Origin: an uncultured Fibrobacterota bacterium
Lineage (GTDB): Bacteria; Fibrobacterota; OXYB2-FULL-49-7; CAYNYI01
Assembly (NCBI GenBank): GCA_964401455.1
Contig: CAYNYI010000001.1
Location: 1,245 to 65,244 of the forward strand
Reading direction: 5' to 3'
DNA: 64,000 nt
The position numbers and the translations under genes were made by a program. Shown here one piece after another: positions 3,077 to 59,680 of this stretch. The stretch's first letter is position 1. Each line of letters starts with the position of its first letter. Below the pieces are notes generated by a model, which was given only the letters and a program-made list of their open reading frames with translations, was not told where the DNA came from and made no database searches.

Positions 3077-4069
3077 TCAGGATCCTGAATCTGATTTCTG
3101 ATAGTAATTAACGGCGGAAGAAATTATCGGCGCAATATCATCATAGAAAGGGGTCCATCCGAGCTTCCGGCGGGCCTTCTCATATGAACCGACCAACTCA
3201 GGGGGGTCTCCCTCTCTTCTTGGCGCGCCTTTCCATCTTACTTTACGGCCGGTTATTTTCTCAATGTTTTCTATTATCTCCATGACAGAAAAACCCCTTG
3301 AATTTCCAAGATTGAAAATATCCGGTTCACCCCCTGATTTCAGGTAATCAAAGCCCTTGAGATGTGCTTCACAAAGATCATTGACATGTATATAATCTCT
3401 TATACAAGTTCCGTCGCCGGTTTCATAGTCCTCACCGAAAACCGACAATTCAAAACCGCCGGAACTAGAAGCCTTAAAACAAAGCGGAATTAAATGTGTC
3501 TCGGGATTATGCTCTTCCCCGATTTCTCCGGAAGGATCGGCCCCGGCGACATTAAAGTATCGGAAAATAACATAATTAAGATTTCCGTTTTGCGCCGTAC
3601 TCATGATTCTTTTCTCTGCTTCTTTCTTTGAAACCCCGTAAGGATTAACCGGAGACAGAGGAAAATTTTCTTCAATAGGAATTCTTGAAGGAATTCCGTA
3701 AACGGCGCATGTGCTTGAAAAAATCAGATTATTAACGCCCCTTAATTCCATCTCATCGACAAGATTAGAAGTTCCGCCGATATTATTCTCAAAATATAAA
3801 TCCGGCTTTTTTACGGACTCTCCAACATCCATAAAGGCGGCAAAATGAAAAACCGCGCTTATCCCCGGATATTCTGAAAAAACAGCGGCCACGTCTTTTT
3901 TATTTCTCAAGTCACCCTGAAAAAAACTCCCGTAATTCAGAAACTTTTTTGAGCTTCTCTCAAGACTGTCAAAAACTACAACGTCAAACCCTCTCTCCGC
4001 GAGCATACGGCTCATATGTGAGCCAATATAGCCCGCCCCTCCGGTAACAAGAATCTTTTCTTTTTTCAT
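3077..4069 (-). CDS. galE: UDP-glucose 4-epimerase
   Basis: N-terminal Rossmann motif KILVTGGAGYIGSH with overall GalE-like sequence. The start is placed at the internal Met (MKKEKILVTGG...), ATG at 4067-4069. The longer ORF up to 4135 is probably a 5' over-extension. Confidence 0.8.
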   Translation of the reverse strand: MKKEKILVTGGAGYIGSHMSRMLAERGFDVVVFDSLERSSKKFLNYGSFFQGDLRNKKDVAAVFSEYPGISAVFHFAAFMDVGESVKKPDLYFENNIGGTSNLVDEMELRGVNNLIFSSTCAVYGIPSRIPIEENFPLSPVNPYGVSKKEAEKRIMSTAQNGNLNYVIFRYFNVAGADPSGEIGEEHNPETHLIPLCFKASSSGGFELSVFGEDYETGDGTCIRDYIHVNDLCEAHLKGFDYLKSGGEPDIFNLGNSRGFSVMEIIENIEKITGRKVRWKGAPRREGDPPELVGSYEKARRKLGWTPFYDDIAPIISSAVNYYQKSDSGS

Positions 4070-4165
4070 ATCATTTTCTCTGTTATCGTAAAGACCTGAT
4101 TCAATATATTTTCTAAATAATTGTTTATCAAGCATTTTAAAAATATTCTAATTATATTTTAAGAA

Positions 4166-5359
4166 ATGCTGAAGAAAAACAAATACGGTATCATTGTCTG
4201 CGGAGCGGGGCCCGCGGGTTCAAGCGCCGCAAAAGCGGCGGCGGAAGCCGGAGCGGATGTTCTTTTAATAGAAAAAAAACAGGAAACCGGCACTCCTCTA
4301 CGCTGCGGGGAGGCATCCGGGTCTAAAGATGAAATTTCCCGTTTTATTAAAATAGATCATAAGTGGATATCGGCAGAGATAAATGCCGTCCGGGTTAAAA
4401 GTGATAATGCGGAATTCCAAAAAGAGATACCTTCCGCCGGTCTTGTTCTCGACAGAAAGATATTCGACCGGGAACTTGCTCTTTCCGCTGTTAAATCCGG
4501 GGCGGATTTTTTACCCTGCGCGTGCCTGACAGGTGTAAAAATGTCCGGAAAAGGCCAAATAAAGTCCGCAGAAGTTCTTCATTTCGGGGAGAAAATATCT
4601 ATAAATGCCGACATTTTTATCGGAGCTGACGGGCCGTGCTCTACTCTGGCAAAAGCAGCCGGCCTGAAGACAAAACACAAAAAAAAAGAGTTCGCTTCCG
4701 GCCTCCAATACCTTGCCGCGCCTGTAGAAAATCTCCGTGAAGACTGCCTGCATTTTTTTATCACCTCAAAAAAAGGTTATTTCTGGGCATTCCCTAAAGG
4801 AGGAAAAGTTTTTAATATCGGAACCGGCTGGATTCCGGATTACCCCGAACAATCAGTTATGAAAAATGAACTGGACTCATTCATGCGTAAAAACTTTCCG
4901 AAAGCTTCCGTGGTTGAAATCCATGCCGGCGGAATCCCCGGCGACGGAGGTCTAAAAGAAATTGTTCGTGGCAATCTTGCCGTTATAGGAGATGCGGCAC
5001 ATCATATACACCCTCTTTCGGGAGGCGGAATTATGAATGCTCTTGAAGACGGCTTATGGGCGGGTAAAGCGGCGGCGGAAGCTTCGAAAGACCCAAAAAA
5101 TGCAGAAAGACACCTAAAAGAATACGAAAAAGCGTTCGCGTCAAAGAATAAAAAATCTTTCCGGTGGGGCCGGCGGTTTCGAAATGTTCTTTATTCCATG
5201 TCCGGAAAAGAGATAGATACCGTTATTTCCGGTGCGGAGAAAATGCTCGAATCATTCGATAGAAAAAAGATAATGTCTCCGGAGTTTTTAAAACTAATAT
5301 TAAAATCAAGCCCTCTGTTCCTTAGAAAAGCAGGCGCCCTGTTCGGGTTTAAAAAATGA
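4166..5359 (+). CDS. geranylgeranyl reductase family FAD-dependent oxidoreductase
   Basis: N-terminal FAD-binding motif IIVCGAGPAGSSAAKAAAEAGADVLLIEKK followed by the GGR-family signature GTPLRCGEASGS (compare archaeal GGR P-V-R-C-G-E). Length 397 aa. Confidence 0.7.
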   Translation: MLKKNKYGIIVCGAGPAGSSAAKAAAEAGADVLLIEKKQETGTPLRCGEASGSKDEISRFIKIDHKWISAEINAVRVKSDNAEFQKEIPSAGLVLDRKIFDRELALSAVKSGADFLPCACLTGVKMSGKGQIKSAEVLHFGEKISINADIFIGADGPCSTLAKAAGLKTKHKKKEFASGLQYLAAPVENLREDCLHFFITSKKGYFWAFPKGGKVFNIGTGWIPDYPEQSVMKNELDSFMRKNFPKASVVEIHAGGIPGDGGLKEIVRGNLAVIGDAAHHIHPLSGGGIMNALEDGLWAGKAAAEASKDPKNAERHLKEYEKAFASKNKKSFRWGRRFRNVLYSMSGKEIDTVISGAEKMLESFDRKKIMSPEFLKLILKSSPLFLRKAGALFGFKK

Positions 5360-5529
5360 AACTTATCCGTATTGAAAATAATTTGTGTATTTACTGTGAG
5401 GCCTGCTGCGCCCTTTGCCCCGAAGACGCACTCAAATCAGAAAGCCGGAGAATAAATATCTCTCAAAATTGCAGTAAATGCGGTATTTGTGCCAGTATAT
5501 GCCCGTGTGGCGCCATAAAGCAGGATTAG
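5356..5529 (+). CDS. small 2[4Fe-4S] ferredoxin
   Basis: 57-aa ORF, absent from the ORF track because it is under 60 aa. It has two CxxCxxCxxxCP clusters (CIYCEACCALCP and CSKCGICASICP). Its ATG overlaps the GGR stop (ATGA), implying translational coupling. Confidence 0.6.
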   Translation: MKLIRIENNLCIYCEACCALCPEDALKSESRRINISQNCSKCGICASICPCGAIKQD

Positions 5530-7439
5530 AAACGGTTTTTTCTTTCAACAGGAATGTTCTCGAGAGCTATGCGAAAATTGCATAAAGACACATTGTGTTT
5601 TCGGCATATAGATTTTAAATTATGTTCCCTGTTTCCGTTAACAAATTTCGATGAAAGAACAATCCTCTGAATTCCGTATTCGGAGCAAACAGCGTCAAGA
5701 TCATTTATTGAACCAAGAACTTTATAGTTATGAATTTCTTTTTTCTGTTTAAGTGGATCATCATCAATAAACCCGACAATCTTTAAATCATTACTGTCAC
5801 GCATAAACACATTGGCAGCCAGCTCTCCTCTGTCTCCGGCGCCGTAGATAAGAGTCTTTTCTCCCTCTTTTTTGTCAGCCAGCTCCCGCGAAGCATATAG
5901 ATAGAAAAAGTTATAGCTTATCCTTACACCGATTATAAGAATAATCATAAAAAGCCAATAAACAATATAAGTCTTCATTGACAAACCGTTTTCAGGAGAA
6001 AGATAACTGAAAATAAAAAACGAAAGCAGCACCCCTCCTGTTACACCTTTAAAAAACTTCCCGATCGCGCCAAGGCTGATGTGGCGCCACATATCCTTGT
6101 AGTATCCGAACGCGAGAAAAGAGATGAAACATACCCCGAAATTCAGTGTAAACCTTTTTATAAGTGCCGGGGCTGACAAAGCCTGAAGACAAGTTTCATC
6201 AATAATAAACATGGCAAAGTAATAACTTACGGAAACAAGCACAAAATCAATGAACATTTCGAAAATATGATGTCTTGTCATCCTTCTGATCAAAAAAGGA
6301 TATTTCTTTCCCGTAATATTATATTCTGCCTGATAATATTCTTTGTTTTTTTCTATTCGCTTTGCGTTGAGCTTAACAAGTATAGTCTCAATGTATCCAA
6401 GTCGTTTAATCCCGACAAAAACCAGCATCGTCATTAGAAAAAGAATTCCGGCTGCGGTCTGATCCTGTGCCGCCGTCATCATAAGGGCCAGCATTCCAAA
6501 AACAAGAGTTACAAAATACAGAATAAATACCGTCTGCTTTTGATTAAAACCAAATGAAAGCAGCCGGTGATGAAAATGGTCTTTGTCCGCCGAAAAGGGG
6601 CTTGCGCCTGTAATAATACGCCTGACCATAGCGAATAGAGTATCAAAAATAGGAACACCGAGCGCAACAAAGGGAATGATAAGAGAGACTGTGGCAGCGC
6701 TGACAACCGCCTCTTTCAAAGAAATTAGCGCGAGAATATAACCTAGGAAGAGACTCCCGGTATCTCCCATAAAAATCCTTGCCGGATTAAAATTATACTT
6801 CAGGAATCCCATCAACGAACCCGCAAGAGAAAGGCTCAAAAGAAGCACAACCGGTTTATTGGAAATTATAGCTATGGCGCTGAGCGTAATCGCCACAATC
6901 ATGGAAATACCCGAAGCAAGACCGTCCATTCCGTCAGAAAGGTTCACGGCGTTTGTAACCCCGACAATCCAAAAAACGGTAAGAGGAACCCCCATCCAAC
7001 CCAGTGCGATGGGATCTCCACCGAAAGGGTTTGTAAGCCTGTCTATTTTAAGACCCTTATAAACCAGAAAAGACGCGACAGCAAACTGAACAACGAACTT
7101 CAGTTTTGCGTCCGCGCCCCTGAGGTCATCATATATTCCAAGAAATAAAATAATGACACCGCCAATAAGTATATAAAGGTAACGCTCAGAAAAGATGTCG
7201 GGAGTAGAAGCACTGCCGCCTCTAAGGTAATCCAGAAAATAAAAGAAGCTAATTCCGGCGGCAAAACCTATAAAGATGGCGATTCCCCCCATAAGGGGAA
7301 TCGTGCCTTTATGAATCTTTCTTCCGTCAGGTTTATCAACCGCCCCAATTGATAAGGCCAGGTTTTTAACATAAGGAGTTAAAAACCAGCTTACAGCAAG
7401 CGCGGCGAACCCTGAGAGCAAATAATCTGTTAAAATCAT
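5526..7439 (-). CDS. WecA/MraY-family polyprenyl-phosphate N-acetylhexosamine-1-phosphate transferase fused to a C-terminal WbaP-N-terminal-like (TM + CoA-binding-like) module
   Basis: The N-terminal ~330 aa are polytopic with PNPT motifs (IYDDLRG; VNLSDGMDGLASG). The C-terminal ~300 aa add more TM helices and a GAGDRGELAANVF...IVGFIDDDP...VLGSINDL segment resembling the non-catalytic N-terminal domain of sugar phosphotransferases. Confidence 0.65.
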   Translation of the reverse strand: MILTDYLLSGFAALAVSWFLTPYVKNLALSIGAVDKPDGRKIHKGTIPLMGGIAIFIGFAAGISFFYFLDYLRGGSASTPDIFSERYLYILIGGVIILFLGIYDDLRGADAKLKFVVQFAVASFLVYKGLKIDRLTNPFGGDPIALGWMGVPLTVFWIVGVTNAVNLSDGMDGLASGISMIVAITLSAIAIISNKPVVLLLSLSLAGSLMGFLKYNFNPARIFMGDTGSLFLGYILALISLKEAVVSAATVSLIIPFVALGVPIFDTLFAMVRRIITGASPFSADKDHFHHRLLSFGFNQKQTVFILYFVTLVFGMLALMMTAAQDQTAAGILFLMTMLVFVGIKRLGYIETILVKLNAKRIEKNKEYYQAEYNITGKKYPFLIRRMTRHHIFEMFIDFVLVSVSYYFAMFIIDETCLQALSAPALIKRFTLNFGVCFISFLAFGYYKDMWRHISLGAIGKFFKGVTGGVLLSFFIFSYLSPENGLSMKTYIVYWLFMIILIIGVRISYNFFYLYASRELADKKEGEKTLIYGAGDRGELAANVFMRDSNDLKIVGFIDDDPLKQKKEIHNYKVLGSINDLDAVCSEYGIQRIVLSSKFVNGNREHNLKSICRKHNVSLCNFRIALENIPVERKNRF

Positions 7440-7563: not shown

Positions 7564-9003
7564 TCAGCTGCCGAAATCCGCCGCGGATGAGCCGGGATGA
7601 AGTCTTGTTCCTTCCGGTATGTGAATATTTTTGTTCGAATTATTTACAAGAGAAACTTCTCCCTCTACAATAGTTCCGCGGCCAAAAACAAATGGCCCTG
7701 AGACCTTGAAAGAACGACACTTCTTGAGAGAAGGAAAACCCGAAGGGAACCTTTCTGAAAAGTCTTTCATTCTCCCGAAGAATTTTTTGTCAAGCTCTAT
7801 ATAAGCCCTGCCGGCGCTTGCCTCTTCCCGGGCCGAAAGCATTCCGGTTTTTTCATTATAATCATACAAATCAGAGCAGACAAGCAAAAGATCTGATGTG
7901 CTTTTTACGGGAAGAAACCTGCTTCTGGGTACTTCTATGGCCGAAGCACCGTTAAAAAACTGGATTCCGGATCCGACTGTGGATTCAACCTGAATCACTT
8001 TTGCTGATTCGGGGTCAACGGGGTTAACTGTCTTCTTGTTTTTGATAAGAGGCAGTCGGAAAAAGCCGCCCTGTTTTTCAAGCTCTTTTTTAAGGCATTT
8101 CAGGTTCATCCAGATATTATTGATATTAAAATATCTGAAATACTCTATATCCATGAATTTGTCGAGCTCTTCTTCCGGGCATTGCGCCGTATCTCTCAGC
8201 ATAAGGTTTCCATCGGTTTTTGTCCCGAGATGTCCGCCTTTTTTGTCCATGGGTGTCCTTCTGGTAACTTCGGAAATAAAAGAAATATTCTCATCTGCCA
8301 TATAGCCGAGGATCCTGTATTCCATAACGGTACCAAGGTTGTCAATATTTGAAAGAAAAAGGAACTCGAACCCTTTTTCCAGAAGAGAGTCAAGGACCCC
8401 GGAGGAGTTGAGTGCTATGTAAAAGTCTCCATGACCGGGAGGGTTCCATTCCTTTTCCGGGTCAACCGGATATGAAACCGGCATCAGATCGCCCTCGTTA
8501 ATCTTGGGAAACTTGTTCTGAATAAACTCCAGGGTCATATCCTGTACAAAATCTGTTTTTTCACTTATATGTCTCATAGTATCATCAGATGTTGCAAAGC
8601 TGTTCATAAACAATGCCGGAATATCAGATCCTCCGGATTTGCGCATGAATTCCGTCTGCCGCAAAACGATGTCAAGAAAAGTCTTTTCTCCCCTGACCGG
8701 CAAAAGACCTTTGGGGCCCTCGAGTCCCATTGTTGTCCCGAGCCCGCCGTTCAATTTGCACATAACACATTTTTCAAGAAATTTTCGCCCACTTTCCGCA
8801 TATGAATCAAGAGAAGAAAGAGGCCGCGGATCCGGGGATCTTTCGAAGTCTTGGCCTTCATATAAAAGACCATTGTCTCCCTCAATCATTTTATCGAAAT
8901 AATGACAGAAAATATCTATTACGGGTTTTTTGAGCCCGTCATTTTTCATCTTATCTATAAAAGCTTCTTTGTTCTTATTCATAAGGGTTATATCTCCTTT
9001 CAA
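7564..9003 (-). CDS. UDP-sugar pyrophosphorylase (UTP--glucose-1-phosphate uridylyltransferase, eukaryotic UDPGP-type)
   Basis: Signature KLNGGLGTTMGLEGPKGLLPV of the UDPGP family; 479 aa. The true start may be the internal Met (MNKNKEAF...). Confidence 0.7.
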   Translation of the reverse strand: MKGDITLMNKNKEAFIDKMKNDGLKKPVIDIFCHYFDKMIEGDNGLLYEGQDFERSPDPRPLSSLDSYAESGRKFLEKCVMCKLNGGLGTTMGLEGPKGLLPVRGEKTFLDIVLRQTEFMRKSGGSDIPALFMNSFATSDDTMRHISEKTDFVQDMTLEFIQNKFPKINEGDLMPVSYPVDPEKEWNPPGHGDFYIALNSSGVLDSLLEKGFEFLFLSNIDNLGTVMEYRILGYMADENISFISEVTRRTPMDKKGGHLGTKTDGNLMLRDTAQCPEEELDKFMDIEYFRYFNINNIWMNLKCLKKELEKQGGFFRLPLIKNKKTVNPVDPESAKVIQVESTVGSGIQFFNGASAIEVPRSRFLPVKSTSDLLLVCSDLYDYNEKTGMLSAREEASAGRAYIELDKKFFGRMKDFSERFPSGFPSLKKCRSFKVSGPFVFGRGTIVEGEVSLVNNSNKNIHIPEGTRLHPGSSAADFGS

Positions 9004-20244: not shown

Positions 20245-21231
20245 ATGGAATTCGACCTATTACAAAAACAAATTCCGGTCCGCCGGGGCGGCCTGATATC
20301 TTACAAAGACTCTTCTCCTGTCAAGACAGAAACATATGTCTATAAATATGATGACTATTTAAAAAAAGACAAAAGCACCGGAAAAAAGATTGTTTCATTT
20401 TTAATAAGTACCCATTCACATCTCGCTGTTTTTGCAATGCTTCTTTCCGCCGCCTGGCAGTATTATGTGGCGAATAAAGTTTCTATTCTTTTAACTGTTT
20501 CAATGGCTGTTTTTACATGGGTTATTTACGGAATAAACCAGATGACAGATAAAAAGGAAGACTTTATTAACAATATAGACAAAATGAACTTCTCCGAGAA
20601 ATACGCGAAGCCAATGCTGTATATTTTTGCCGCTGCCGCTGTTTTATGCCTGGGGCTTACTTATTCACAGAAATCAGCGTTTTATGTTGAACTTTCCGGA
20701 GTTGCCCTTGGAATTTTGTATTCCCTCAAGGTTATACCAGGCATAAAGAATGGAAAACTGAACTTTTATAAAATAAAAGAACTCTCTTTTTTAAAAACCT
20801 TTTTTACATCATTCGTTCTTTCCTATATAATCATTCTTCCGGCACTGTTCCACAACACCGCGCTTAAACCTGAAATCCTTTTTATGGCCGCGATTTTTCT
20901 CAAAACAGCGGCTGACGGCGCGCTTTTTTGTGATATTCGTGATTTAACCGGAGACAAAGTCGCGGGAATCGGAACCATTCCTGTTAAAATCGGCATAAAA
21001 AAAACCGTTTCCAATATAATATACGGAAATCTCTTTTTTGCATTACTTTCTACAATGCTCATGTTTAAGGGGATTATAAGTCCGGCAACTTTTATGTTCG
21101 GTTCGCTTGTTCTTGTGTATTCATCAATATTTGCTATAAATGCAAAAAATCTTAGGAAAAACTGGAATTCATTTACGATACTGTGCGAAGGATATTTTCC
21201 TCTTTGTTCAATTCCGGTTTTTTTCATCTAA
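20245..21231 (+). CDS. UbiA-superfamily polyprenyltransferase
   Basis: Two Asp-rich motifs (NQMTDKKED and DIRDLTGD) within about 8 TM helices, plus a 60-aa soluble N-terminal extension. Confidence 0.6.
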   Translation: MEFDLLQKQIPVRRGGLISYKDSSPVKTETYVYKYDDYLKKDKSTGKKIVSFLISTHSHLAVFAMLLSAAWQYYVANKVSILLTVSMAVFTWVIYGINQMTDKKEDFINNIDKMNFSEKYAKPMLYIFAAAAVLCLGLTYSQKSAFYVELSGVALGILYSLKVIPGIKNGKLNFYKIKELSFLKTFFTSFVLSYIIILPALFHNTALKPEILFMAAIFLKTAADGALFCDIRDLTGDKVAGIGTIPVKIGIKKTVSNIIYGNLFFALLSTMLMFKGIISPATFMFGSLVLVYSSIFAINAKNLRKNWNSFTILCEGYFPLCSIPVFFI

Positions 21232-21250
21232 AAATACAGGCTGATTCTAC

Positions 21251-24067
<2,817 letters not shown>

Positions 24068-24075
<8 letters not shown>

Positions 24076-52280: not shown

Positions 52281-52310
52281 AATATATTTATCCTCAAATG
52301 GATAAAAACG
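52281..52310 (+). promoter_or_regulatory. DnaA-box palindrome overlapping the dnaA start codon
   Basis: TTTATCCtcaaATGGATAAA: TTATCCTCA (1 mismatch to TTATCCACA) and its inverted partner TGGATAAA flank ATG 52298. Confidence 0.45.
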
Positions 52311-53623
52311 AATGCTGGAAACATTTCCTGGAAAAAGCTTCTGAAGAATTTGACAGCAGTCTTTTCAAAACATGGATAAAACCGCTTAAACCTCTTGTCA
52401 TTTCCGAAGACCGGGTTATTATCTTTGTAAAAGACGCCATTTTTATGGAATTCATAGAAAGTAATCATTCCGATAAAATAAAAAATCTTCTTAAAAATAT
52501 ATGCGGATTCCCAATTAATCTTATTTTTACCGATAAAGAAATTGTCTATGAAAAGAAATTTGACAAAAAAGAAAAAGTCAATGTTAATAAAGGTGAAATT
52601 AATCCGGATTTTACCTTTGACGATTTTGTTGTAGGCGGAAACAACCGGTTTGCGTATTCCGCCTCACACGCGGTAGCGGAATCACCCGGTAATAATAAGT
52701 TTAATCCTCTTTACCTTTACGGGAAAAGCGGTCTGGGTAAAACACATCTTCTTTTTGCCATTGGAAACTATGCCGTTAAGAATCACAGTAACCTTAATAT
52801 AAAATATGTTTCCGCAGATAAAATGCAAAGAGATCTCATAGAAAACATACAAAAAAACAAAACCGCGGAATTCAGGGAGTCTTTTAATAATTTGGACATC
52901 CTTCTTGTTGATGATATCCATTTTTTGTCCGGCACATCATCTACACAGGAAGAATTTTTTCACATTTTCAATACCATTTATCAGCGTTCAAAACAGATTA
53001 TTATAACAAGCGACAAACAGCCAAGAGAACTTTCAGGAATAGAAGACAGGTTGGTTTCAAGATTTCAGTGGGGTCTTTCTGTTGATATTCAACCTCCTGA
53101 CCTTGAAACGAAAATTGCTATATTAAATAAAAAAGCAGAGAATCATAGTTTTGAACTTTCTCCGGATATCATAAGATATATAGCTTCAAATACCGATAAT
53201 ATAAGGGAGCTTGAGGGATGTATAATAAAACTTTTAGCTTATTCATCAATAAACAACAGGCTTGAAATAACACTTGATCTTGCAAAGGATGTTCTAAAAT
53301 TCGGAACCGGAATCGCAAGAAAAAAGATATATATTGAACAAATAACGGAAAGTGTTATTAACTATTATAAAGGTTATAAAATAGATATTAATGATGTTCT
53401 TTTCGGAGGAAGAAAAAAAGAAGTAGCCCTGGTCAGACAAGTTTCAATGTATCTATCAAGAACAATGACATCCAATTCCTTAAAAAATATAGGAAGCTAC
53501 TTTAGAAAAGATCACAGTACGGTTGTACATTCTATTAAAAACATAAATAAACTTCTAAAAGAAGATGAACAGCTTGGAAATGATATAGAAAACATTAAAA
53601 AAAATATAACTGAAAACCTTTAA
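52298..53623 (+). CDS. dnaA: chromosomal replication initiator protein DnaA
   Basis: AAA+ Walker A LYGKSGLGKTHLL; a C-terminal DnaA-box-binding domain; 441 aa. Confidence 0.95.
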   Translation: MDKNECWKHFLEKASEEFDSSLFKTWIKPLKPLVISEDRVIIFVKDAIFMEFIESNHSDKIKNLLKNICGFPINLIFTDKEIVYEKKFDKKEKVNVNKGEINPDFTFDDFVVGGNNRFAYSASHAVAESPGNNKFNPLYLYGKSGLGKTHLLFAIGNYAVKNHSNLNIKYVSADKMQRDLIENIQKNKTAEFRESFNNLDILLVDDIHFLSGTSSTQEEFFHIFNTIYQRSKQIIITSDKQPRELSGIEDRLVSRFQWGLSVDIQPPDLETKIAILNKKAENHSFELSPDIIRYIASNTDNIRELEGCIIKLLAYSSINNRLEITLDLAKDVLKFGTGIARKKIYIEQITESVINYYKGYKIDINDVLFGGRKKEVALVRQVSMYLSRTMTSNSLKNIGSYFRKDHSTVVHSIKNINKLLKEDEQLGNDIENIKKNITENL

Positions 53624-53923
53624 TAAGCTATTTAAATTTAATAAGTTCTTGAAGAACAACCCGATTGACTGTTGATAACATGTTAAATTTAACAACCGAT
53701 GTTTTTTGAACATTTTTTTATTTAATGTAATCTGCTGATTTTTAATAAATTAAACACCATATAAACAATATCAACACTACTATAATATTAATAAATTTAA
53801 ATTAATAAAAAATTTAATATTAGTAGGCTGTTAGTATCACTCAAATAAATATTTTCTTGTATTATATTTGGTTTTAATTTATATTTTTTTGAAATTAATC
53901 ATTCTTTTTGAGGGGAAATAAAT
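53624..53923. promoter_or_regulatory. candidate oriC (AT-rich unwinding region with DnaA-box-like motifs) between dnaA and dnaN
   Basis: A 300-bp non-coding spacer of very low GC. TGTTGATAA (53670-53678) and the inverted ATATCAACA (53768-53776) are about 100 bp apart, followed by an uninterrupted A/T tract at 53781-53822. Confidence 0.5.
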
Positions 53924-55051
53924 TTGAAGTTCAATATAAAAAAATCAGATCTTCTTTCTGTGCTTCAGAATGTTGTCAGTGCCATATCAACCAAAACGAC
54001 GATTCCATATTTATCATATATCCATATTTCCGGAAATAATAATAAATTAAAAATCTCGTCTACTGACCTTGATATGTTTATTACCGGATCCGTTCCCGCT
54101 GATGTGGTTCAGGATACGGATATACTGGTAAGTGGTAAAAAGCTTCTTGATATAATCAAAAACCTTCCGGAAGTTGTGGTTGCTTTTAAAGTCGAGGAAA
54201 ATTTTCTGGTAATAGAGGCTGAAAAATATAAAGGAAAGCTTCCTGTAGCGGATGTTGCTGATTTTCCATCTATTCCTTCCATTTCAGATGTTTACAGTTT
54301 TAAAATTAAATCTGAAAGTATTCAAAAATTAATAAGTAATGTTGTTTACGCGGCCTCTACTGACGAAAGTATGCCTGTTTTAAGGGGATTGAATTTTGAG
54401 GTAAATAAAAACAGAATAAGAATGGTAGCTACAGACAGACATAAAATGGCCCTTTATGAAATTCAGTCTGATACAGGTATTGAAAAAGACTCAAGAATTA
54501 TTATTTCAAGGAAGACCGCTTCTCATATACAAAAAACGATCGATATTTTTTCTCCGGATGAAATAGAAATTTCAGTCAGTGAAAAATTCTGTATTTTCAG
54601 CATGGGGGAGACCACTGTTTTTTCAAAAATAATTGAGGGAAAATATCCTAATTATGAACAGGTTATACCAAAAGATAATAAAAAAACCGCTATTGTAAAT
54701 AAAAGTATTCTTCTTAATAAAATTAATCTTGTAAGTCTTTCGTCGGACACAAATACAAAACAGATACTTTTTAAATTTTCAGCCGGCTCTTTAAGTCTTA
54801 GCGCACACAATAAAGAAACTTCTTTTTATTCTTCGGAAGAAATTCCTGTGTCTTATAACGAAGAGGAAATATCAATAGCCTTTAATTCTCAGTTTCTTTC
54901 AGAAACACTGAAACTTGTTAATACCGAAGAAGTGAGTTTTAATATGAAATCTTCTTTAAACGCGTGCATTATAGTTCCTACTGAGCATAAAGAAGGTGAA
55001 AATTCTTTATTCCTTCTTATGCCTCTAAGAACAGTTGAAGAGAATGCTTAA
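53924..55051 (+). CDS. dnaN: DNA polymerase III beta sliding clamp
   Basis: 375 aa with a TTG start preceded by a GAGGGG RBS and three clamp-domain repeats. Confidence 0.9.
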   Translation: MKFNIKKSDLLSVLQNVVSAISTKTTIPYLSYIHISGNNNKLKISSTDLDMFITGSVPADVVQDTDILVSGKKLLDIIKNLPEVVVAFKVEENFLVIEAEKYKGKLPVADVADFPSIPSISDVYSFKIKSESIQKLISNVVYAASTDESMPVLRGLNFEVNKNRIRMVATDRHKMALYEIQSDTGIEKDSRIIISRKTASHIQKTIDIFSPDEIEISVSEKFCIFSMGETTVFSKIIEGKYPNYEQVIPKDNKKTAIVNKSILLNKINLVSLSSDTNTKQILFKFSAGSLSLSAHNKETSFYSSEEIPVSYNEEEISIAFNSQFLSETLKLVNTEEVSFNMKSSLNACIIVPTEHKEGENSLFLLMPLRTVEENA

Positions 55052-56309
55052 CTCAAAAATTTTTTTTACTGTTGTTTTTTTCAAAATTTTAACTTTTTCT
55101 TCAGCTATAAATGAATACCGTTTTATAAAAGATTCCTGGAATCCTGAGTCTTCAAACCACGGTTTTGCTTCTGTATCGGTTTCCAGGGGAATTTTTTCCT
55201 ATTTAGAAAATCCCGCGCTTACCGGCAAAACACCAAATTTAATTACCGGTCTTTCCTCTTCATATTCCGGAAATCATTTTTCTTTTAATCCGGCTTTTAC
55301 TTCCAGAATATCTAATAATACGGTTATAGGATTGGGTGTATTAAGAAACAATTCTTCTATTCCTGAAAATCGGTTTACTTTTAATTTCAGCTACTCTTTT
55401 CTTAATTATTCTTTCGGATTGAATTCTCATTTTCTTAATTATTCTGACGAGTCTCTTGAGTTTCAAAACAAAACAAATATGGATTTTGATTTCGGATATA
55501 TAATAGAACCTTTCAGCAAGCTGCGTCACGCATTTACAGTATATAATCTTCTTTCATCCTCTTTTTATGAAAGTTATGATACTGTTTTAAAAACAATGAC
55601 TTCACTTGAAACATCTCTTTCTCTATTAATCAACGAAAGCGGAAAAAGCAATATTTCGGTTGCCGGAGGTTTCGGTAATTCTGATGAAGTAATGAATTCA
55701 TTGAATGGCGGAGTTTCTCTGAGTCTTGTATTTATTAAGGAAAAATTAGGGCTTCATTCTTCTTTTAATTATCAAAAAGAAGGAAAAAATAGTTTTTATA
55801 CAAAAACCGGTTTCGGACCCTCTTTTATTTTGAATACCGATGCGGGGGATTACCGGTTTTCTTATTCCTCACAAATAATACGGAATTCTTTTTCATCAGA
55901 GAAAAATATAAATCATTATGTTTCTATTGATTATTCGCATGGAATAGAAAAGGATTTTTATAAGCCTTTCGGTAATATTACTACAGATAAAAATTCTTTT
56001 ACTCCTGATGGAGATAATGTTGATGATTTTTTAACCGTGTTTATTGAAGCCTCCGATAATGAAGGAGGCACCGGACTGAAAAAATGGGCTTTAGTAATAT
56101 GTAAACGACCGGACACGGAAAAATCATCTTCGTGTGATATTATTAAATCTTTCAGCGGGAAAGGGATCCCGCCGGGTGCGTTGAAATGGGATGGTAGGAA
56201 TTCTTCTTCAACATTGTGTGCAAAAGGGGATTATTTTTTAAGACTCAGACTGGTTGATAAAAAAAATAATCACTTCGAAGGACCCTGGAAAAAAATATCT
56301 ATTGAATAA
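55035..56309 (+). CDS. secreted/outer-membrane hypothetical protein with C-terminal FTPDGDxxDD-type (gliding-motility / FlgD-Ig-like) domain
   Basis: Signal peptide; S/N/F-rich beta-strand-like body; C-terminal FTPDGDNVDDFL...WDGRN...GDYFLRLRL. It overlaps the dnaN 3' end by 17 nt. Confidence 0.55.
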   Translation: MKRMLNSKIFFTVVFFKILTFSSAINEYRFIKDSWNPESSNHGFASVSVSRGIFSYLENPALTGKTPNLITGLSSSYSGNHFSFNPAFTSRISNNTVIGLGVLRNNSSIPENRFTFNFSYSFLNYSFGLNSHFLNYSDESLEFQNKTNMDFDFGYIIEPFSKLRHAFTVYNLLSSSFYESYDTVLKTMTSLETSLSLLINESGKSNISVAGGFGNSDEVMNSLNGGVSLSLVFIKEKLGLHSSFNYQKEGKNSFYTKTGFGPSFILNTDAGDYRFSYSSQIIRNSFSSEKNINHYVSIDYSHGIEKDFYKPFGNITTDKNSFTPDGDNVDDFLTVFIEASDNEGGTGLKKWALVICKRPDTEKSSSCDIIKSFSGKGIPPGALKWDGRNSSSTLCAKGDYFLRLRLVDKKNNHFEGPWKKISIE

Positions 56310-56329
56310 CAGTTAGTTGATATTTTCAT

Positions 56330-57406
56330 TTGTTTCTAAAAAAAATTAAACTTTCAAATTTCAGAAACTTCTCTGAACTTGATATTGATTTTCAGAAAGG
56401 TATAAATCTTATTACCGGGCTTAACGGCAGTGGTAAAACAAACCTTCTGGAATCTGTGTATTACTGTGGTTATTTTCGACCTTTGAAAAGCGGCACAGCT
56501 AAAGATATGATAAAGTTTGATAAAGAATGTTTTAATATCACAATAGAATATGATTCAAAAGACTCAACGAATACTGTAAATGCAAATTATTCGATAGATG
56601 GTTTACGAAAAGTATTCTTTAATGGAAAAAAAATAGATTCCGTTTTAGAATATATAGGAAAATTTATAACCGTTGGATTCGGACCCGACGATTTGAATAT
56701 AATATCAAATTCCCCCGCTTATAGAAGAAAATTTATAGACTCTGTTTTATCTCAAACTGACAGTAAATATCTTTATTGTCTAAAAGATTATAAAAAAAAT
56801 CTTAAACAGAAGAATTATGAGCTTAAAAATGAAATACCGGACAGAACTCTTCTTAAAACATATACGGAAATTATGTCTGAAAAAGCTTCATATATAATCG
56901 ATAAGAGAAAAGGATTTATCGAAAACATTAAAAAAGATCTCGAAAACCACATTTTTGATATAAGCCTTAACAGAGAAAACATTGAAATTTTTTATATCGG
57001 AAATAAAACGGATTATATTTTCTCAGGCTATCATTCAGATAAACTTGAAAAAGAAATTAAATTCAGAAAAACTCTTAATGGTCCTCATCTCCATGACATA
57101 GATTTTCATTTCCATCATGGGAGCTACCGTGATTTTGGAAGCCAGGGCCAGTGCCGTTCTTTGGCTGTGGCTCTTAAACTGGCATCTATTGAGTATATAA
57201 GTATGACAGCCGAAGTAAAACCAATACTTCTTTTTGATGATATTTTCTCTGAACTTGACCCTGAAAGGAGCGAAAAAATTTTAAAAATTATTAACAAATT
57301 TGATCAGGTATTTATAGCAGCTCCAAAAATGGAACCTTTTTTTAATAATATTAATTATTTTTATGTTATAGAAAAAGACAATGTTTTAAAAAAAATCCCG
57401 GTTTAA
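56330..57406 (+). CDS. recF: DNA replication and repair protein RecF
   Basis: TTG start; IKLSNFRNF...ITGLNGSGKTNLLES Walker A; signature/Walker B (LLFDDIFSELD); 358 aa. Confidence 0.9.
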   Translation: MFLKKIKLSNFRNFSELDIDFQKGINLITGLNGSGKTNLLESVYYCGYFRPLKSGTAKDMIKFDKECFNITIEYDSKDSTNTVNANYSIDGLRKVFFNGKKIDSVLEYIGKFITVGFGPDDLNIISNSPAYRRKFIDSVLSQTDSKYLYCLKDYKKNLKQKNYELKNEIPDRTLLKTYTEIMSEKASYIIDKRKGFIENIKKDLENHIFDISLNRENIEIFYIGNKTDYIFSGYHSDKLEKEIKFRKTLNGPHLHDIDFHFHHGSYRDFGSQGQCRSLAVALKLASIEYISMTAEVKPILLFDDIFSELDPERSEKILKIINKFDQVFIAAPKMEPFFNNINYFYVIEKDNVLKKIPV

Positions 57407-57407
57407 A

Positions 57408-57713
57408 ATGAAAAGAAATCAGAAAAAAAGAGACCCTGAACAAATAGGTAAAATGATTGAATTACTTATAAACAATAATTCTAAAATAAGACAACACTTT
57501 AATTCTTATGATATTTCAGACTGTTGGAAAGAGGTTACAGGTGAGAAAATAGCGTCAATTTCCAAATTTGTAAAATTTGAAAAATCAACGCTTTATATTA
57601 AAGTAGAGAACAGTGTCTGGAAAGCCGAACTTTTTTATATGAAGCAGGAGCTGATAACCAGGATTAATAAAAAAAACGGTAAAAATATTCTGAAAGATAT
57701 TATATTCATATAA
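57408..57713 (+). CDS. dciA: DUF721-family protein, probable DciA-type helicase-loading factor
   Basis: 101 aa between recF and gyrB, the conserved DUF721 position. Pattern ...W.EVTGEKIASISKFVKFEKSTLYIKVENSVWKAEL... matches that family. Confidence 0.55.
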   Translation: MKRNQKKRDPEQIGKMIELLINNNSKIRQHFNSYDISDCWKEVTGEKIASISKFVKFEKSTLYIKVENSVWKAELFYMKQELITRINKKNGKNILKDIIFI

Positions 57714-57763
57714 GAAAATTTTCATCATGAAATATTTCCTATTTCCGAAAGAAGAGGTAAAAC

Positions 57764-59680
57764 GTGTCCGGTGAACAATATCAGGCGAATTCCATAAAAG
57801 TACTAAAAGGTCTGGAGGCTGTACGTAAACGTCCGGCAATGTATATTGGAAGTACAAATACCCGGGGGCTTCATCACCTTGTTTTTGAGGTTATAGACAA
57901 TTCAATAGATGAAGCGATGGCCGGGCATTGTGACAAAATAGACGTTATTATTCTTAAAGATGAATCTATTTCTGTCAGGGACAACGGCAGAGGAATACCT
58001 ACGGATTATCATGAAGGTGAAAAGAAAAGCGCACTTGAAGTGGCGCTTACGACACTTCATGCCGGAGGCAAGTTTGATGCTGACAGTTATAAAGTATCCG
58101 GCGGTCTTCATGGTGTAGGGGTTTCATGTGTAAATGCTTTGAGTATCTGGACCAAGGTAAAAGTTTTCAGGGACGGCAAAACACATGAACAAAGCTATAA
58201 AAGAGGTTTTCCTGACGGGCCTCTCAAGGTTACAGGAGAAACAAAAGAAACAGGTACGCTTGTAACTTTTAAGCCGGATCATGAAATTTTTGAAGAAACT
58301 ATTTTTAATTTTGACACTCTTTCCGCCAGACTCAGAGAGCTTGCTTTTCTGAATAAGGGAATAAGGATAACGATTATTGATGAGCGTAAAGAAGATCACA
58401 GACACTCTTTTTATTATCCGGGTGGAATAGCTTCTTTTGTTGAATATCTTAACGAGGATATTGTCGTTCTTCATAAACCACCGATTTATTTCCGGAACGA
58501 AGGGGAAAATTTTGATCTTGAAATATCAATACAATACAACGATTCTTATAAGGACAAAGTTTTTTCGTTTGTTAACAATATTAATACAGTTGACGGAGGA
58601 ACGCATCTTGCCGGGTTTAGAAGCTCCCTTACCCGTACTATAAACAATTATGCCAAAATAAACAACATGCTAAAAGGCAAGAACCCGGTTACAATTACGG
58701 GTGTTGATATATAAGAAGGCCTTACTTCTGTTATAAGCATAAAAATATCGAATCCCCAGTTTGAAGGACAGACAAAACATAAACTTGGAAATCCTGAGGT
58801 GAAAGGAATTGTCGAAAGCAGCCTCAACGAAAAACTGGGAATTTTTCTTGAAGAAAACCCGCCAGTCGCTAAAAAAATAATTGATAAATGTATAGGCGCC
58901 GCGACAGCGAGAGAGGCCGCAAGAAAAGCAAAACAGCTTTCCAGAAGAAAAAACTTTCTTGAGACGGGCAGCCTTCCCGGTAAACTTGCCGACTGCTCAA
59001 GCAAAGACAGAACAATTTGTGAGATATTCATTGTTGAGGGGGACTCTGCGGGCGGTTCTGCCAAGATGGGTAGAGACCGGTCTTTTCAGGCTATACTTCC
59101 TCTTCGCGGAAAAATTCTTAATGTTGAAAAAAAGAGACTTGATAAAATTCTTTCGAGCGAAGAAATAAAAGTTTTAATATCTGCTATCGGAACGGGGATC
59201 GGCGATGATGAATTTGATATGGAAAAGAGAAGATATGATAAAATTATCATAATGACCGACGCAGATGTTGACGGGGCGCATATACGGACATTATTAATGA
59301 CTTTTTTCTTCAGATATATGGAAAAGCTCATTACAGACGGACACTTATATATTGCTCAACCACCTTTATATAAAATCAAACAAGGTAAAAGAGAGGTATA
59401 TGCGTTTAGCGACGAAGAAAAAAACAGGCTTGTAAAAGAATTAGATCAGTCTAAAAATCAAAAAGTTTCTATACAGAGATATAAAGGTCTTGGTGAAATG
59501 AACCCGGAACAGCTCGCAACAACAACCATGGAACCAGACAGAAGAATTCTTCTTCAGGTTACTCTTGAGGATGCAGTCGAAGCCGATAAAATTTTTACTA
59601 AACTTATGGGTGACGAAGTTGAGCCGAGAAGAAAATTTATAGAGGACCATGCCCATACTGTTAAGGAGCTTGATGTCTGA
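57764..59680 (+). pseudogene. gyrB: DNA gyrase subunit B, interrupted by an in-frame TAA as sequenced
   Basis: Both halves are in one frame, so there is no frameshift. The reading ...[37 protein letters not shown]... places a TAA at 58712-58714, where GyrB homologues have Arg (TGEDVREGL). Track ORF 1 ends at the stop and ORF 2 restarts at GTG 58799. ATPase motifs and TOPRIM motifs (EGDSAGGS; DADVDGAHI) are intact. Confidence 0.85.

Follow-up and report, generated by a model that had tools for sequence, protein, structure and literature searches.

A predicted ferredoxin-dependent geranylgeranyl reductase unit of euryarchaeal type in a Fibrobacterota genome

Two overlapping genes in a 64-kb stretch of DNA (the whole of which we call the window) appear to be co-expressed as one unit, which would encode a polyprenyl (geranylgeranyl) reductase of euryarchaeal type and the ferredoxin on which it depends; we give this reading a probability of about 0.8. 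The first gene encodes an enzyme that belongs to the geranylgeranyl reductase (GGR) family, with the fold of that family and its catalytic motifs intact. It overlaps the second, which encodes a small ferredoxin, and linkage or fusion of such a ferredoxin to the reductase is seen across the clade. Sequence comparison gives good support for regarding the pair as a divergent member of the known ferredoxin-dependent GGR module, and for the mechanism that goes with it. The host, a Fibrobacterota MAG, is an FCB bacterium, as an earlier reading made from the letters alone (below, the sequence-only reading) had supposed.

The reductase gene, the ferredoxin gene and their flanks

Table 1. Positions in the window of the reductase-ferredoxin pair, its flanking genes and the UbiA prenyltransferase.
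Feature	Position	Strand	Basis
galE (GalE)	3077..4135	-	profile search
Divergent intergenic region galE/GGR, presumed promoter site	4136..4165	.	ORF map and gene calls
GGR family FAD enzyme, 397 aa	4166..5359	+	TIGR02032, PF22578, PDB match, AF2 model, motifs
ATGA stop/start overlap, GGR/ferredoxin	5356..5359	+	sequence itself
57-aa ferredoxin, 2x[4Fe-4S]	5356..5529	+	Fer4 and Fer4_10 above cut-offs
WecA/MraY-type GT4 polyprenyl-phosphate sugar-phosphate transferase	5526..7439	-	profile search
UDPGP, Wzi-like protein	near the module	opposite to the module	profile search
UbiA prenyltransferase, very divergent	20245-21231 (about 15 kb from the module)

Profile searches place the product of the first gene above the cut-offs of TIGR02032 (GG-red-SF; 182.3 bits, cut-off 158.8) and PF22578 (GGR_cat; 46.4 bits, cut-off 27). 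The FAD-binding GxGxxG motif occupies residues 13-18 (G13-A-G15-P-A-G18) and the family signature T-P-L-R-C-G-E residues 43-49, with Cys47 as the catalytic-type cysteine next to the flavin; YxWxFP follows at residues 205-210 (Y205, W207, F209, P210) and GDAA at residues 275-278, and G286-G-G288 is present as well. When 40 homologues are aligned, R46, C47, E49, W207, F209, P210, G275, D276 and G288 all fall in invariant columns. The lipid-cavity motif PxxYxWxFP departs from the rule at its first position, which is Lys202 in the window GGR and proline in at least 90% of the aligned homologues; Y205, W207, F209 and P210 are kept, so that the motif's core is present with one deviation.

The structural evidence agrees with the profiles. 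An AF2 model of the protein (pLDDT 87.8, pTM 0.89) retrieves 3OZ2 as its first Foldseek match (TM 0.88, full length) and the Sulfolobus GGR as its second (TM 0.82), and 3OZ2 is also the best solved relative in a PDB sequence search (E 7e-45, 157 bits), with the Sulfolobus GGR at E 3e-13 and 53 bits. Among the proteins found, identity reaches 38% at most, and the best matches, at 32-38%, are GGRs of methanogens, Thermoplasmata and FCB bacteria. The scores stay below the cut-offs of the narrower models, both those for the DGGGPL reductase equivalogs (NF041160, NF041080 and NF041385; 164.3, 110.9 and 67.7 bits against 780, 580 and 700) and those for other branches of the superfamily, namely ChlP/BchP (TIGR02023, 97.4 bits against 343.3; TIGR02028, 63.6 against 505.3), MenJ (NF045655, 63.8 against 700) and FixC-like proteins (PRK10015, 37.8 against 466). 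The protein is closest to the GGRs of the euryarchaeal DGGGPL-reductase type, of which it would be a very divergent example. The sequence-only reading had called it an archaeal-style GGR, and this description is borne out: TIGR02032 and PF22578 are passed, 3OZ2 is the closest structure, and the ChlP/BchP, MenJ and FixC models fail. Clustering with the FixC or BchP clades was looked for and is not seen in the profile scores, the tree described below being one without ChlP/BchP.

The second ORF carries two CxxCxxCxxxCP motifs, CIYCEACCALCP and CSKCGICASICP, and matches Fer4 at E 3e-7 and Fer4_10 likewise above its cut-off. Its ATG (5356-5358) shares bases with the TGA that ends the reductase gene (5357-5359), an overlap that suggests translational coupling and places both genes in one transcription unit. 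Direct reading of the sequence and the profile searches confirm what had been said of this junction earlier, that is the ATGA overlap, the PLRCGE signature and the two-cluster ferredoxin of 57 residues. The same arrangement is repeated in two further assemblies of the organism, GCA_046542585.1 (contig L001) and Logan SRR11308339 (contig L002). The statement that the ferredoxin gene is unannotated holds for the Logan contig, on which it is not called, and fails for the NCBI-derived contig, on which it is.

The best pairwise match of the window ferredoxin is the GGR-adjacent ferredoxin of a Methanosarcinaceae locus (27 of 55 residues identical; L034). In local alignments its highest scores, 130-143, are with GGR-linked ferredoxins of Methanosarcinaceae, Methanoculleus, Methanoregula, Methanohalophilus and Methanocellales, together with those of Methanomicrobiales; unlinked ferredoxins from the same loci score 90-106, a margin that is modest for a protein of 57 residues. 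Length and cluster spacing are identical between the window protein and the GGR-linked ferredoxins. We infer that it is of the GGR-linked kind and acts as the dedicated electron donor of the reductase. The proposal of a methanogen-type ferredoxin partner has held up well. Many relatives, Methanosarcinaceae and Methanohalophilus among them, have a ferredoxin of this kind next to the GGR; the analogy with the MA_1484/MA_1485 pair of Methanosarcina acetivorans therefore goes beyond resemblance and is one of module homology.

The glycan neighbours named in the sequence-only reading (GalE, the WecA/MraY-type GT4, UDPGP and the Wzi-like protein) are as described, and GDP-sugar genes also lie near the module. 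The module and galE are divergently oriented, the module and the GT4 gene convergently, and the position of the module on the strand opposite to both excludes co-transcription with either. The short intergenic region on the galE side is the presumed promoter site for both module genes; with the galE start that is called on the NCBI-derived contig, it would measure 96 nt. A consensus scan for promoters and terminators around the module gave matches at or below chance and no promoter on the plus strand, the sigma-70-like sites near the module being confined to the minus strand and occurring at chance frequency. The GC content of the module (0.43-0.48) lies within local variation (flanks 0.37-0.46), and recent horizontal transfer, considered on this basis, receives no evidence either way. 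Elsewhere the 64-kb window contains pssA and psd, both bacterial phospholipid genes.

The ferredoxin-reductase unit in related genomes

We compared the pair with 80 related genomic loci, taking as close relatives those with an HMM score of at least 380 bits. Of the 27 close relatives that could be assessed, about 23 have a small ferredoxin directly next to the GGR, and in one more the two are fused. At sixteen close loci a co-directional 2x[4Fe-4S] ferredoxin gene stands just upstream of the GGR gene, as a rule with an overlap of 4-20 nt, and one locus has an N-terminal fusion; inspection by hand adds L013, L017 and L027 to the ferredoxin-linked loci, and the truncated L034 and L035 add two. 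About five assessable close loci have no adjacent ferredoxin, one of them with a ferredoxin 2.5 kb upstream, and at the distant GGR-family loci none was found (0 of 55). The linked relatives include methanogens, Thermoplasmata, FCB bacteria, Poribacteria and Chloroflexi, and natural ferredoxin-GGR fusion proteins occur (P0051, P0065 and L033). Overlap by 4 nt is seen in Methanosarcinaceae (L034) and Methanohalophilus (L015). The order of the genes sets the window apart: the reductase precedes the ferredoxin here, and the ferredoxin precedes the reductase in all other intact cases. A degenerate ferredoxin-like gene follows the GGR in a Phaeodactylibacter locus (Bacteroidota, L031); an intact downstream ferredoxin is found only in the window.

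A bootstrapped neighbour-joining tree (95 sequences, 380 columns, 100 replicates, built without ChlP/BchP or MenJ references) groups the window GGR with the euryarchaeal-type set, apart from the Sulfolobus/Thaumarchaeota and actinobacterial groups. The nodes around it have 3-27% support, those nearest to it 14-27%, and the first well-supported enclosing node (70%) includes the Sulfolobus-type GGRs. The exact position in the tree is poorly supported; a nesting of the window GGR in the ferredoxin-linked clade is suggested by the scores and the shared ferredoxin. The actinobacterial GGR-family loci, which form the outgroup and which we take to be MenJ-like, have no adjacent ferredoxin.

What surrounds the pair varies from genome to genome. 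When the flanks of 16 bacterial loci were compared with one another by all-against-all BLAST, only the GGR itself was widely shared, and no glycan gene recurs among the neighbours; association with a glycan locus was therefore rejected as a conserved feature. The informative neighbours of the bacterial relatives are mostly prenyltransferases, the module being part of different prenyl-lipid clusters in different bacteria. Poribacteria have, in a row, a UbiA gene, a DGGGPS-like UbiA gene (NF009521, 239 bits; cut-off 296), the ferredoxin, the GGR and a GGGP synthase gene (TIGR01769, 224 bits; cut-off 161.6), and a Cytophagia MAG has UbiA, ferredoxin, GGR and a pgsA-like gene. The Phaeodactylibacter locus is a tight operon in which the GGR and the ferredoxin-like gene are followed by a UbiE-like methyltransferase, a second methyltransferase and a homogentisate phytyltransferase (NF009525, 342 bits; cut-off 226), and methyltransferases like these stand beside the GGR in Ignavibacteriaceae. 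A polyprenyl synthase gene adjoins the GGR in L091. A second Fibrobacterota MAG (L003) has, at a distance of 3.8 kb from the pair, a cluster with a decaprenyl-phosphate phosphoribosyltransferase and DprE1/DprE2-like genes.

Candidate substrates

Partners in isoprenoid and ether-lipid synthesis were sought with Pfam and NCBIfam profiles among all window ORFs of at least 150 aa. Neither GGGPS (PcrB) nor a DGGGPS-type UbiA, G1PDH, CarS or polyprenyl synthase was found in the 64 kb, the window gave no match to a polyprenyl-synthase motif or to an HMM made from the PcrB genes of Poribacteria, and no prenyl-lipid pathway gene adjoins the module. A bacterial GGGPS query against a large protein database had only Poribacteria-type proteins among the matches listed. 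The UbiA prenyltransferase of the window (Table 1) has intact Asp-rich motifs and is accompanied by a PF04240 membrane protein. It is nevertheless a near-orphan, with a single weak match in an indexed search and at most 31% identity among 1.84 billion representatives; none of its nearest relatives matches a curated family, the PDB contains no relative of it, and BLAST finds zero similarity to the UbiAs beside the ferredoxin-GGR pairs of L011, L013, L017 and L031. As a candidate partner of the module it was set aside, being a near-orphan unlike the GGR-linked UbiAs and having no demonstrable link to the pair.

The related module of Phaeodactylibacter stands beside a homogentisate phytyltransferase, and membership of the clade therefore leaves the substrate unfixed. 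We divide our expectation among three substrates, given here in falling order, and assign the rest to others.

The first, held tentatively and at well under even odds, is that the module saturates archaeal-type ether lipids, that is DGGGP-derived phospholipids, and so contributes to a mixed bacterial and archaeal-like membrane. The affinity of the window GGR to the euryarchaeal DGGGPL-reductase type points this way, as do the position of the Poribacteria pair between a DGGGPS-like UbiA and a GGGP synthase and that of the Cytophagia pair between UbiA and a pgsA-like gene; GGGPS and DGGGPS, together with euryarchaeal-like GGRs, are moreover described in FCB bacteria in one survey (PMC7852524). 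Against it stand the genes missing from the window, where the ether-lipid substrate put forward in the sequence-only reading gains no backing, the dissimilarity of its sole UbiA to the DGGGPS-like proteins of the relatives, and the service of the close relative in Phaeodactylibacter to another pathway. For Fibrobacteres the survey reports both GGGPS and DGGGPS, but in separate genomes, and it found no genome of the group with both ether-bond enzymes (PMC7852524). That the little-sampled Fibrobacterota lineage makes saturated archaeal-type isoprenoid ether lipids with this ferredoxin-GGR pair, alongside its bacterial phospholipids, seems to us rather unlikely.

The second, possible though doubtful, is a role like that of ChlP, in which GGPP or some prenylated intermediate is reduced to a phytyl-type chain for a UbiA-family prenyltransferase. 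The product would be a non-ether prenyl lipid, whether a quinone, something tocopherol-like or a different prenylated compound of the membrane. The Phaeodactylibacter operon speaks for this, since its GGR belongs to the same clade, heads a homogentisate phytyltransferase operon and has its ferredoxin-like gene downstream, as in the window; the similar methyltransferases of Ignavibacteriaceae, the intact motifs of the window UbiA with its PF04240 companion some 15 kb off, and the promiscuity of GGRs towards GGPP (PMC10821996) are consistent with it. Yet that UbiA lies apart from the module and resembles homogentisate phytyltransferase at the level of the family only (24 bits), no methyltransferase or aromatic-head-group gene is found near the module, and the grouping of the window GGR with its Phaeodactylibacter relative in the neighbour-joining tree has no bootstrap support.

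The third, which we consider improbable, is that the module saturates a polyprenyl-phosphate carrier, undecaprenyl or dolichol-like, for the neighbouring glycan genes. The sequence-only reading had offered this as an alternative, and it was right that the GT4 gene adjoins the module, which sits between galE and GT4 with further sugar genes near. The decaprenyl-phosphate phosphoribosyltransferase cluster of the second Fibrobacterota MAG and a proposal that archaeal GGR paralogues act on polyprenols (PMC10821996) are in its favour as well. The opposed strands and divergent and convergent arrangement described above argue against it, as does the comparison with other genomes, where a GT4 homologue lies within 10 kb of the module at none of the 15 other bacterial loci and neighbours of the prenyltransferase type are found instead. 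Glycan genes are frequent in such genomes, and proximity to the module in two of them is therefore weak evidence; on these comparisons the polyprenol-carrier alternative is weakened.

Finally, it is very improbable that the protein is no prenyl reductase at all but a FixC/ETF-QO-like flavoprotein, or another flavin monooxygenase or halogenase, with a FixX-like ferredoxin: its fold is common to FixC, halogenases and monooxygenases, which come lower in the Foldseek list, and it matches PRK10015 and UbiH-type models weakly, but the PF22578 domain, Cys47 and YxWxFP are all present, FixC (7koe) is farther than 3OZ2 in sequence (E 9e-7 against 7e-45) and structure (TM 0.68 against 0.88), the partner is a 57-residue two-cluster ferredoxin of the GGR-linked kind, and a profile search across the 64-kb window found no ETF genes, with no EtfA or EtfB gene nearby.

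Proposed mechanism and comparison with known systems

In the ferredoxin-dependent GGR reading that we prefer, the 57-residue ferredoxin would take low-potential electrons from anaerobic metabolism and dock on the flavoprotein, reducing its FAD in one-electron steps; the reduced flavin, with Cys47 beside it, would then hydrogenate C=C bonds of a geranylgeranyl-type chain held in the cavity lined by YxWxFP. The flow of electrons from ferredoxin to FAD and the hydrogenation chemistry are projected onto the window pair from what is established for GGRs and from the MA_1484/MA_1485 precedent.

For the window locus the gain is modest, since what it carries is a known module in divergent form, and the broader result is the conservation of the ferredoxin-GGR unit, sometimes as a fusion, in methanogens, FCB bacteria, Poribacteria and Chloroflexi. 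For a bacterial GGR of this clade a ferredoxin of its own is probably a requirement, which matters when saturated archaeal lipids are to be reconstituted with genes taken from bacteria. Should the pair saturate ether-linked isoprenoids, it would supply the missing last step of the archaeal-like lipid pathway proposed for FCB bacteria, and the potential for mixed membranes, argued so far mainly for Cloacimonetes, would extend to Fibrobacterota. Methanogens would then have in common with many bacterial phyla the whole saturating unit, reductase and dedicated ferredoxin together, rather than the reductase by itself.

Among known flavoproteins, FixC works with a small ferredoxin, FixX, and MenJ reduces a prenyl side chain. 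FixC/ETF-QO and MenJ have the FAD-dependent fold in common with the window GGR, which scores below the cut-offs of their models. ChlP/BchP and the Phaeodactylibacter operon share with it the superfamily and the predicted chemistry (geranylgeranyl to phytyl), and the operon shows that a member of the window GGR's clade can serve a pathway of the phytyl-quinol type; the window differs from the ChlP/BchP systems in having no chlorophyll or tocopherol genes and in its low TIGR02023 and TIGR02028 scores.

Nearer to the window are the GGRs of other FCB bacteria. MAGs of Ca. Cloacimonetes carry euryarchaeal-like GGRs, and the FCB and Cloacimonetes enzymes, close to the euryarchaeal ones, are taken in the same survey to saturate the lipids of an archaeal-like ether-lipid pathway (PMC7852524); searches of its main text and supplement gave no passage that links a ferredoxin to the FCB GGRs. 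Ta0516, the DGGGPL reductase of Thermoplasma acidophilum (3OZ2), has 397 residues, as does the window GGR, and the two share GxGxxG, RCGE, GYxWxFPKG and GDAA. They differ in sequence, with 29% identity by structural alignment and 164 bits against a cut-off of 780 for the Thermoplasmatales equivalog NF041160. Ta0516 was reported to work with NAD(P)H in vitro, even though its locus contains the gene of a 4Fe-4S protein (PMC10821996).

The closest precedent is the MA_1484/MA_1485 pair of M. acetivorans, in which the ferredoxin MA_1485 is required to activate the GGR MA_1484, according to two later accounts that cite Isobe 2014 (PMC8941075, PMC10821996). As in the window, a GGR of euryarchaeal type adjoins a small 2x[4Fe-4S] ferredoxin, which in M. 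acetivorans is its specific reductant (Isobe 2014, cited in PMC8941075, PMC10821996 and PMC7852524). The window pair departs from it in its reversed gene order, its bacterial host and a window that holds no ether-lipid genes, and the methanogen enzymes are about 32-38% identical to the window GGR.

The reductase and its coupled ferredoxin

The sequence-only reading described a geranylgeranyl reductase (GGR) gene joined by an ATGA overlap to a gene for a 57-residue ferredoxin (Fd), and this was borne out by the reading frames, the motifs and the overlap itself (bases 5356–5359, where the Fd start overlaps the GGR stop), all read in the window; both genes recur in identical arrangement in two other assemblies of the same organism, L001 (NCBI GCA_046542585.1) and L002 (Logan SRR11308339). 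The Fd gene had also been called unannotated, which is true of the Logan contig but not of the NCBI-derived one, where it is called. Automatic gene callers often miss small GGR-linked Fd genes (here L002 4443–4616 and, on an archaeal JGI contig, L090 9816–10001), and annotation-based surveys therefore undercount the linkage. As read from the sequence, the reductase carries G13xG15xxG18, T-P-L-R-C47-G-E, G-Y205-F-W207-A-F209-P210-K-G and G275-D-A-A, with Lys202 replacing the first Pro of PxxYxWxFP. The Fd carries the CxxCxxCxxxCP motif twice, and in profile searches it exceeds the cut-offs of both Fer4 and Fer4_10. The base composition and GC content of the module give no sign of recent acquisition.

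The reductase scores 182 bits on TIGR02032, the GGR family model (cut-off 159), passes the PF22578 GGR catalytic-domain model and falls far under the cut-off of every function-specific model: Thermoplasmatales digeranylgeranylglycerophospholipid (DGGGPL) reductase (164 against 780), BchP-ChlP (97 against 343), MenJ (64 against 700) and FixC-like PRK10015 (38 against 466). The solved structures closest in sequence are the Thermoplasma acidophilum DGGGPL reductase (TaGGR, 3OZ2; E 7e-45), Sulfolobus GGR (3e-13) and FixC (9e-7), and an AlphaFold model (pLDDT 87.8) superposes on them with TM scores of 0.88 (3OZ2, across all 397 residues), 0.82 and 0.68, respectively. Judged by these profile scores and solved structures, the enzyme does not fall in the FixC or BchP clade, a placement that the sequence-only reading had named as one that would refute it. 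In a neighbour-joining tree built without ChlP/BchP sequences the reductase groups with TaGGR and the methanogen and FCB set, apart from the Sulfolobus/Thaumarchaeota group and from an actinobacterial group taken as MenJ-like. The adjoining nodes have 3–27% support (95 sequences, 100 bootstraps) and the first supported node enclosing it (70%) is broad; because this position is weakly supported, we based clade membership on the shared Fd together with the profile and structure scores. By sequence the reductase is unusually isolated, with at most 38% identity to any other protein in a 5.8-billion-protein collection, and its 32–38% shell comprises methanogens, Thermoplasmata, Ignavibacteria, Cytophagia, Neomarinimicrobiota, Poribacteria, Latescibacterota, Anaerolineae and another Fibrobacterota.

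Surroundings in the window

Features of the module and the surrounding window
Feature	Coordinates	Strand	Remarks
galE	3077..4135	-	Divergent from module
GGR-family flavoprotein, 397 aa	4166..5359	+	ORF map
Ferredoxin, 57 aa	5356..5529	+	ORF map
WecA/MraY-type GT4 transferase, 637 aa	5526..7439	-	C-terminal CoA_binding_3-like region; convergent with module
UTP-glucose-1-phosphate uridylyltransferase	7564-9003	-	Eukaryote-like PF01704 family (412 bits); no NCBIfam model matched
Very divergent UbiA prenyltransferase (328 aa) with PF04240 membrane protein (285 aa)	20245-22108	+	UbiA motifs NxxxDxxxD and DxxxD intact
NAD-dependent DNA ligase	22100-24075	-	Two ORFs, 4-nt overlap
dnaA, dnaN, recF, gyrB in a row	52298-59680		dnaN and recF separated by a 424-aa protein, family unknown
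gyrB	57764-59680	+	Two ORFs, 84-nt gap; part of DNA_gyraseB domain missing

The module had been placed inside a surface-glycan locus, and sugar and glycan genes do surround it, with UDPGP, a Wzi-like protein and GDP-sugar enzymes lying beyond galE and the GT4 gene; the module itself is a separate two-gene unit on the opposite strand, its 3' end overlapping that of the GT4 gene by 4 nt. The GT4 protein is an unusual fusion, joining a polyprenyl-phosphate sugar-phosphate transferase to a C-terminal extension of ~290 residues, matching the CoA_binding_3/PglD_N region that large WbaP-type phosphoglycosyl transferases typically carry.

No GGGP synthase (GGGPS), DGGGPS-type enzyme, G1PDH, CarS or polyprenyl synthase was found in the 64-kb window, which does encode the bacterial phospholipid genes pssA and psd. 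The divergent UbiA is followed after 19 nt by a PF04240 'carotenoid biosynthesis'/CruF-like membrane protein (285 aa), a layout resembling lycopene-elongase/hydratase pairs; neither crtB nor crtI is in the window. Apart from itself, the closest relative of the UbiA in a set of 1.84 billion representatives shares 31% identity (E 1e-22), and the protein fits neither a curated family nor any PDB relative.

The source record of the protein is a 'Fibrobacterota bacterium' MAG (GCA_046542585.1), an assignment that fits the window content: among the encoded proteins, one belongs to the Fibrobacter paralogous family TIGR02147 (243 bits) and another has a T9SS sorting domain. Given the dnaA-dnaN-recF-gyrB region, a chromosomal replication origin probably lies within or near the window. 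The splits in DNA ligase and gyrB, both essential single-copy genes, are probably assembly indel errors and not real pseudogenes.

Neighbours in relatives and candidate substrates

Candidate substrates were read from neighbour genes alone, and these are not conserved: when the flanks of 16 bacterial loci were compared all-against-all, GGR alone was widely shared, and the informative neighbours were prenyl-lipid enzymes. An ether lipid is our leading, still tentative, reading for this organism (probability roughly 0.35). Two Poribacteria genomes have the order UbiA, DGGGPS-like UbiA, Fd, GGR, GGGP synthase (L013 7667-11947; L017 6902-12022, with an inserted SpoU methylase); the DGGGPS-like UbiAs score 239 and 224 bits on NF009521, below its cut-off of 296, and the GGGP synthase 224 bits on TIGR01769 (cut-off 161.6). 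By sequence, this row brings together the central genes of an archaeal-type ether-lipid pathway and its saturating unit. Villanueva et al. 2021 (PMC7852524) describe euryarchaeal-like GGRs in Cloacimonetes MAGs and bacterial GGGPS/DGGGPS co-localisation as seemingly restricted to that group; their supplement lists both enzymes in Fibrobacteres but in separate genomes, never together in one. A Cytophagia MAG has the order UbiA, Fd, GGR, pgsA-like.

Reduction of GGPP to phytyl-PP, feeding some other prenyl lipid, is an equally tentative reading and only slightly less probable. It is suggested by a tight operon headed by GGR in Phaeodactylibacter (Bacteroidota; L031 4530-8599), where GGR is followed by genes for an Fd-like protein, a pair of methyltransferases and, at 342 bits over a cut-off of 226, a bona fide homogentisate phytyltransferase; for a non-phototroph, the operon looks to encode a pathway of tocopherol- or plastoquinol-like type. 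The Fd-like gene is degenerate, and the methyltransferases are UbiE-like and a second, GPP-methyltransferase/CMAS-like SAM enzyme. From the Poribacteria, Cytophagia and Phaeodactylibacter neighbours, the bacterial Fd-GGR unit would therefore serve at least two kinds of pathway, archaeal-like ether-lipid and phytyl-quinol-like.

Saturation of a polyprenyl-phosphate carrier is improbable: a decaprenyl-phosphate phosphoribosyltransferase cluster does lie 3.8 kb from the module in a second Fibrobacterota MAG, but among the bacterial loci compared none except the window has a WecA-type GT4 nearby, which removes the comparative support for this idea. Other substrates take the rest of the probability.

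Two Ignavibacteriaceae loci (L014 2602-4412, L022 8974-9831) have one or two divergent CMAS/GPP-C-methyltransferase-like SAM methyltransferases beside GGR, which may point to methylated isoprenoid lipids; in L014 a GGR-type Fd lies beyond them, 2.5 kb upstream of GGR.

Ferredoxin linkage and the methanogen precedent

We scored 80 genomic loci of GGR relatives with an HMM of close homologues, counting as linked any small co-directional ORF with two [4Fe-4S] motifs beside GGR. Among the 29 close loci (≥380 bits, window included), 16 have an Fd directly upstream of GGR, in most cases with a 4–20 nt overlap onto the GGR start, one is an N-terminal Fd-GGR fusion, and two Poribacteria loci and L027 proved on inspection to have an upstream Fd too. 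About five lack an adjacent Fd (one of these has an Fd 2.5 kb upstream) and two are too short to assess. Upstream Fds are also present in two incomplete clade members, L034 (Methanosarcinaceae) and L035, and in two database proteins, P0051 and P0065, an N-terminal Fd is fused to GGR. No adjacent Fd accompanies any of 55 more distantly related loci of the GGR family (actinobacterial, MG-II, Thaumarchaeota, Sulfolobus-type and others). Linkage and fusion are thus strong and clade-specific. On one metagenome contig (L091 9486-12844) a PF03692 CxxCxxCC (YkgJ-like) protein replaces the Fd upstream of GGR, and a polyprenyl synthase and a flavodoxin-like protein lie downstream, which may be an alternative electron-donor arrangement.

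The window Fd equals the GGR-linked Fds in length and cluster spacing, aligns best with those of Methanosarcinaceae (27/55 identical), Methanoculleus and Methanoregula, and scores 130–143 against GGR-linked Fds versus 90–106 against unlinked ferredoxins from the same loci. No other intact case has its Fd gene downstream of GGR; the coupling overlap is kept in the window. The analysis shows a flavoprotein of the GGR family, its catalytic motifs and fold intact, paired with a translationally overlapped two-cluster Fd; by analogy with characterised GGRs and the Methanosarcina acetivorans pair, reduced Fd would dock on the reductase and reduce FAD, and the reduced flavin, with Cys47, would hydrogenate isoprenoid C=C bonds.

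Fd-dependent GGR pairs in methanogens and euryarchaeal-type GGRs in FCB bacteria are already known; the window locus is a divergent, order-swapped Fd-GGR pair, which by our literature search had not been pointed out in Fibrobacterota. The comparative pattern outweighs the locus: the pair is conserved and fused across many bacterial phyla, and is inserted in GGGPS/DGGGPS or phytyltransferase clusters. In M. acetivorans, according to two reports (PMC8941075; PMC10821996), ferredoxin MA_1485, encoded beside GGR MA_1484, is needed for the reductase to work; from this precedent, the linkage and the Fd similarity, we conclude that the window carries a homologue of the MA_1484/MA_1485 module.
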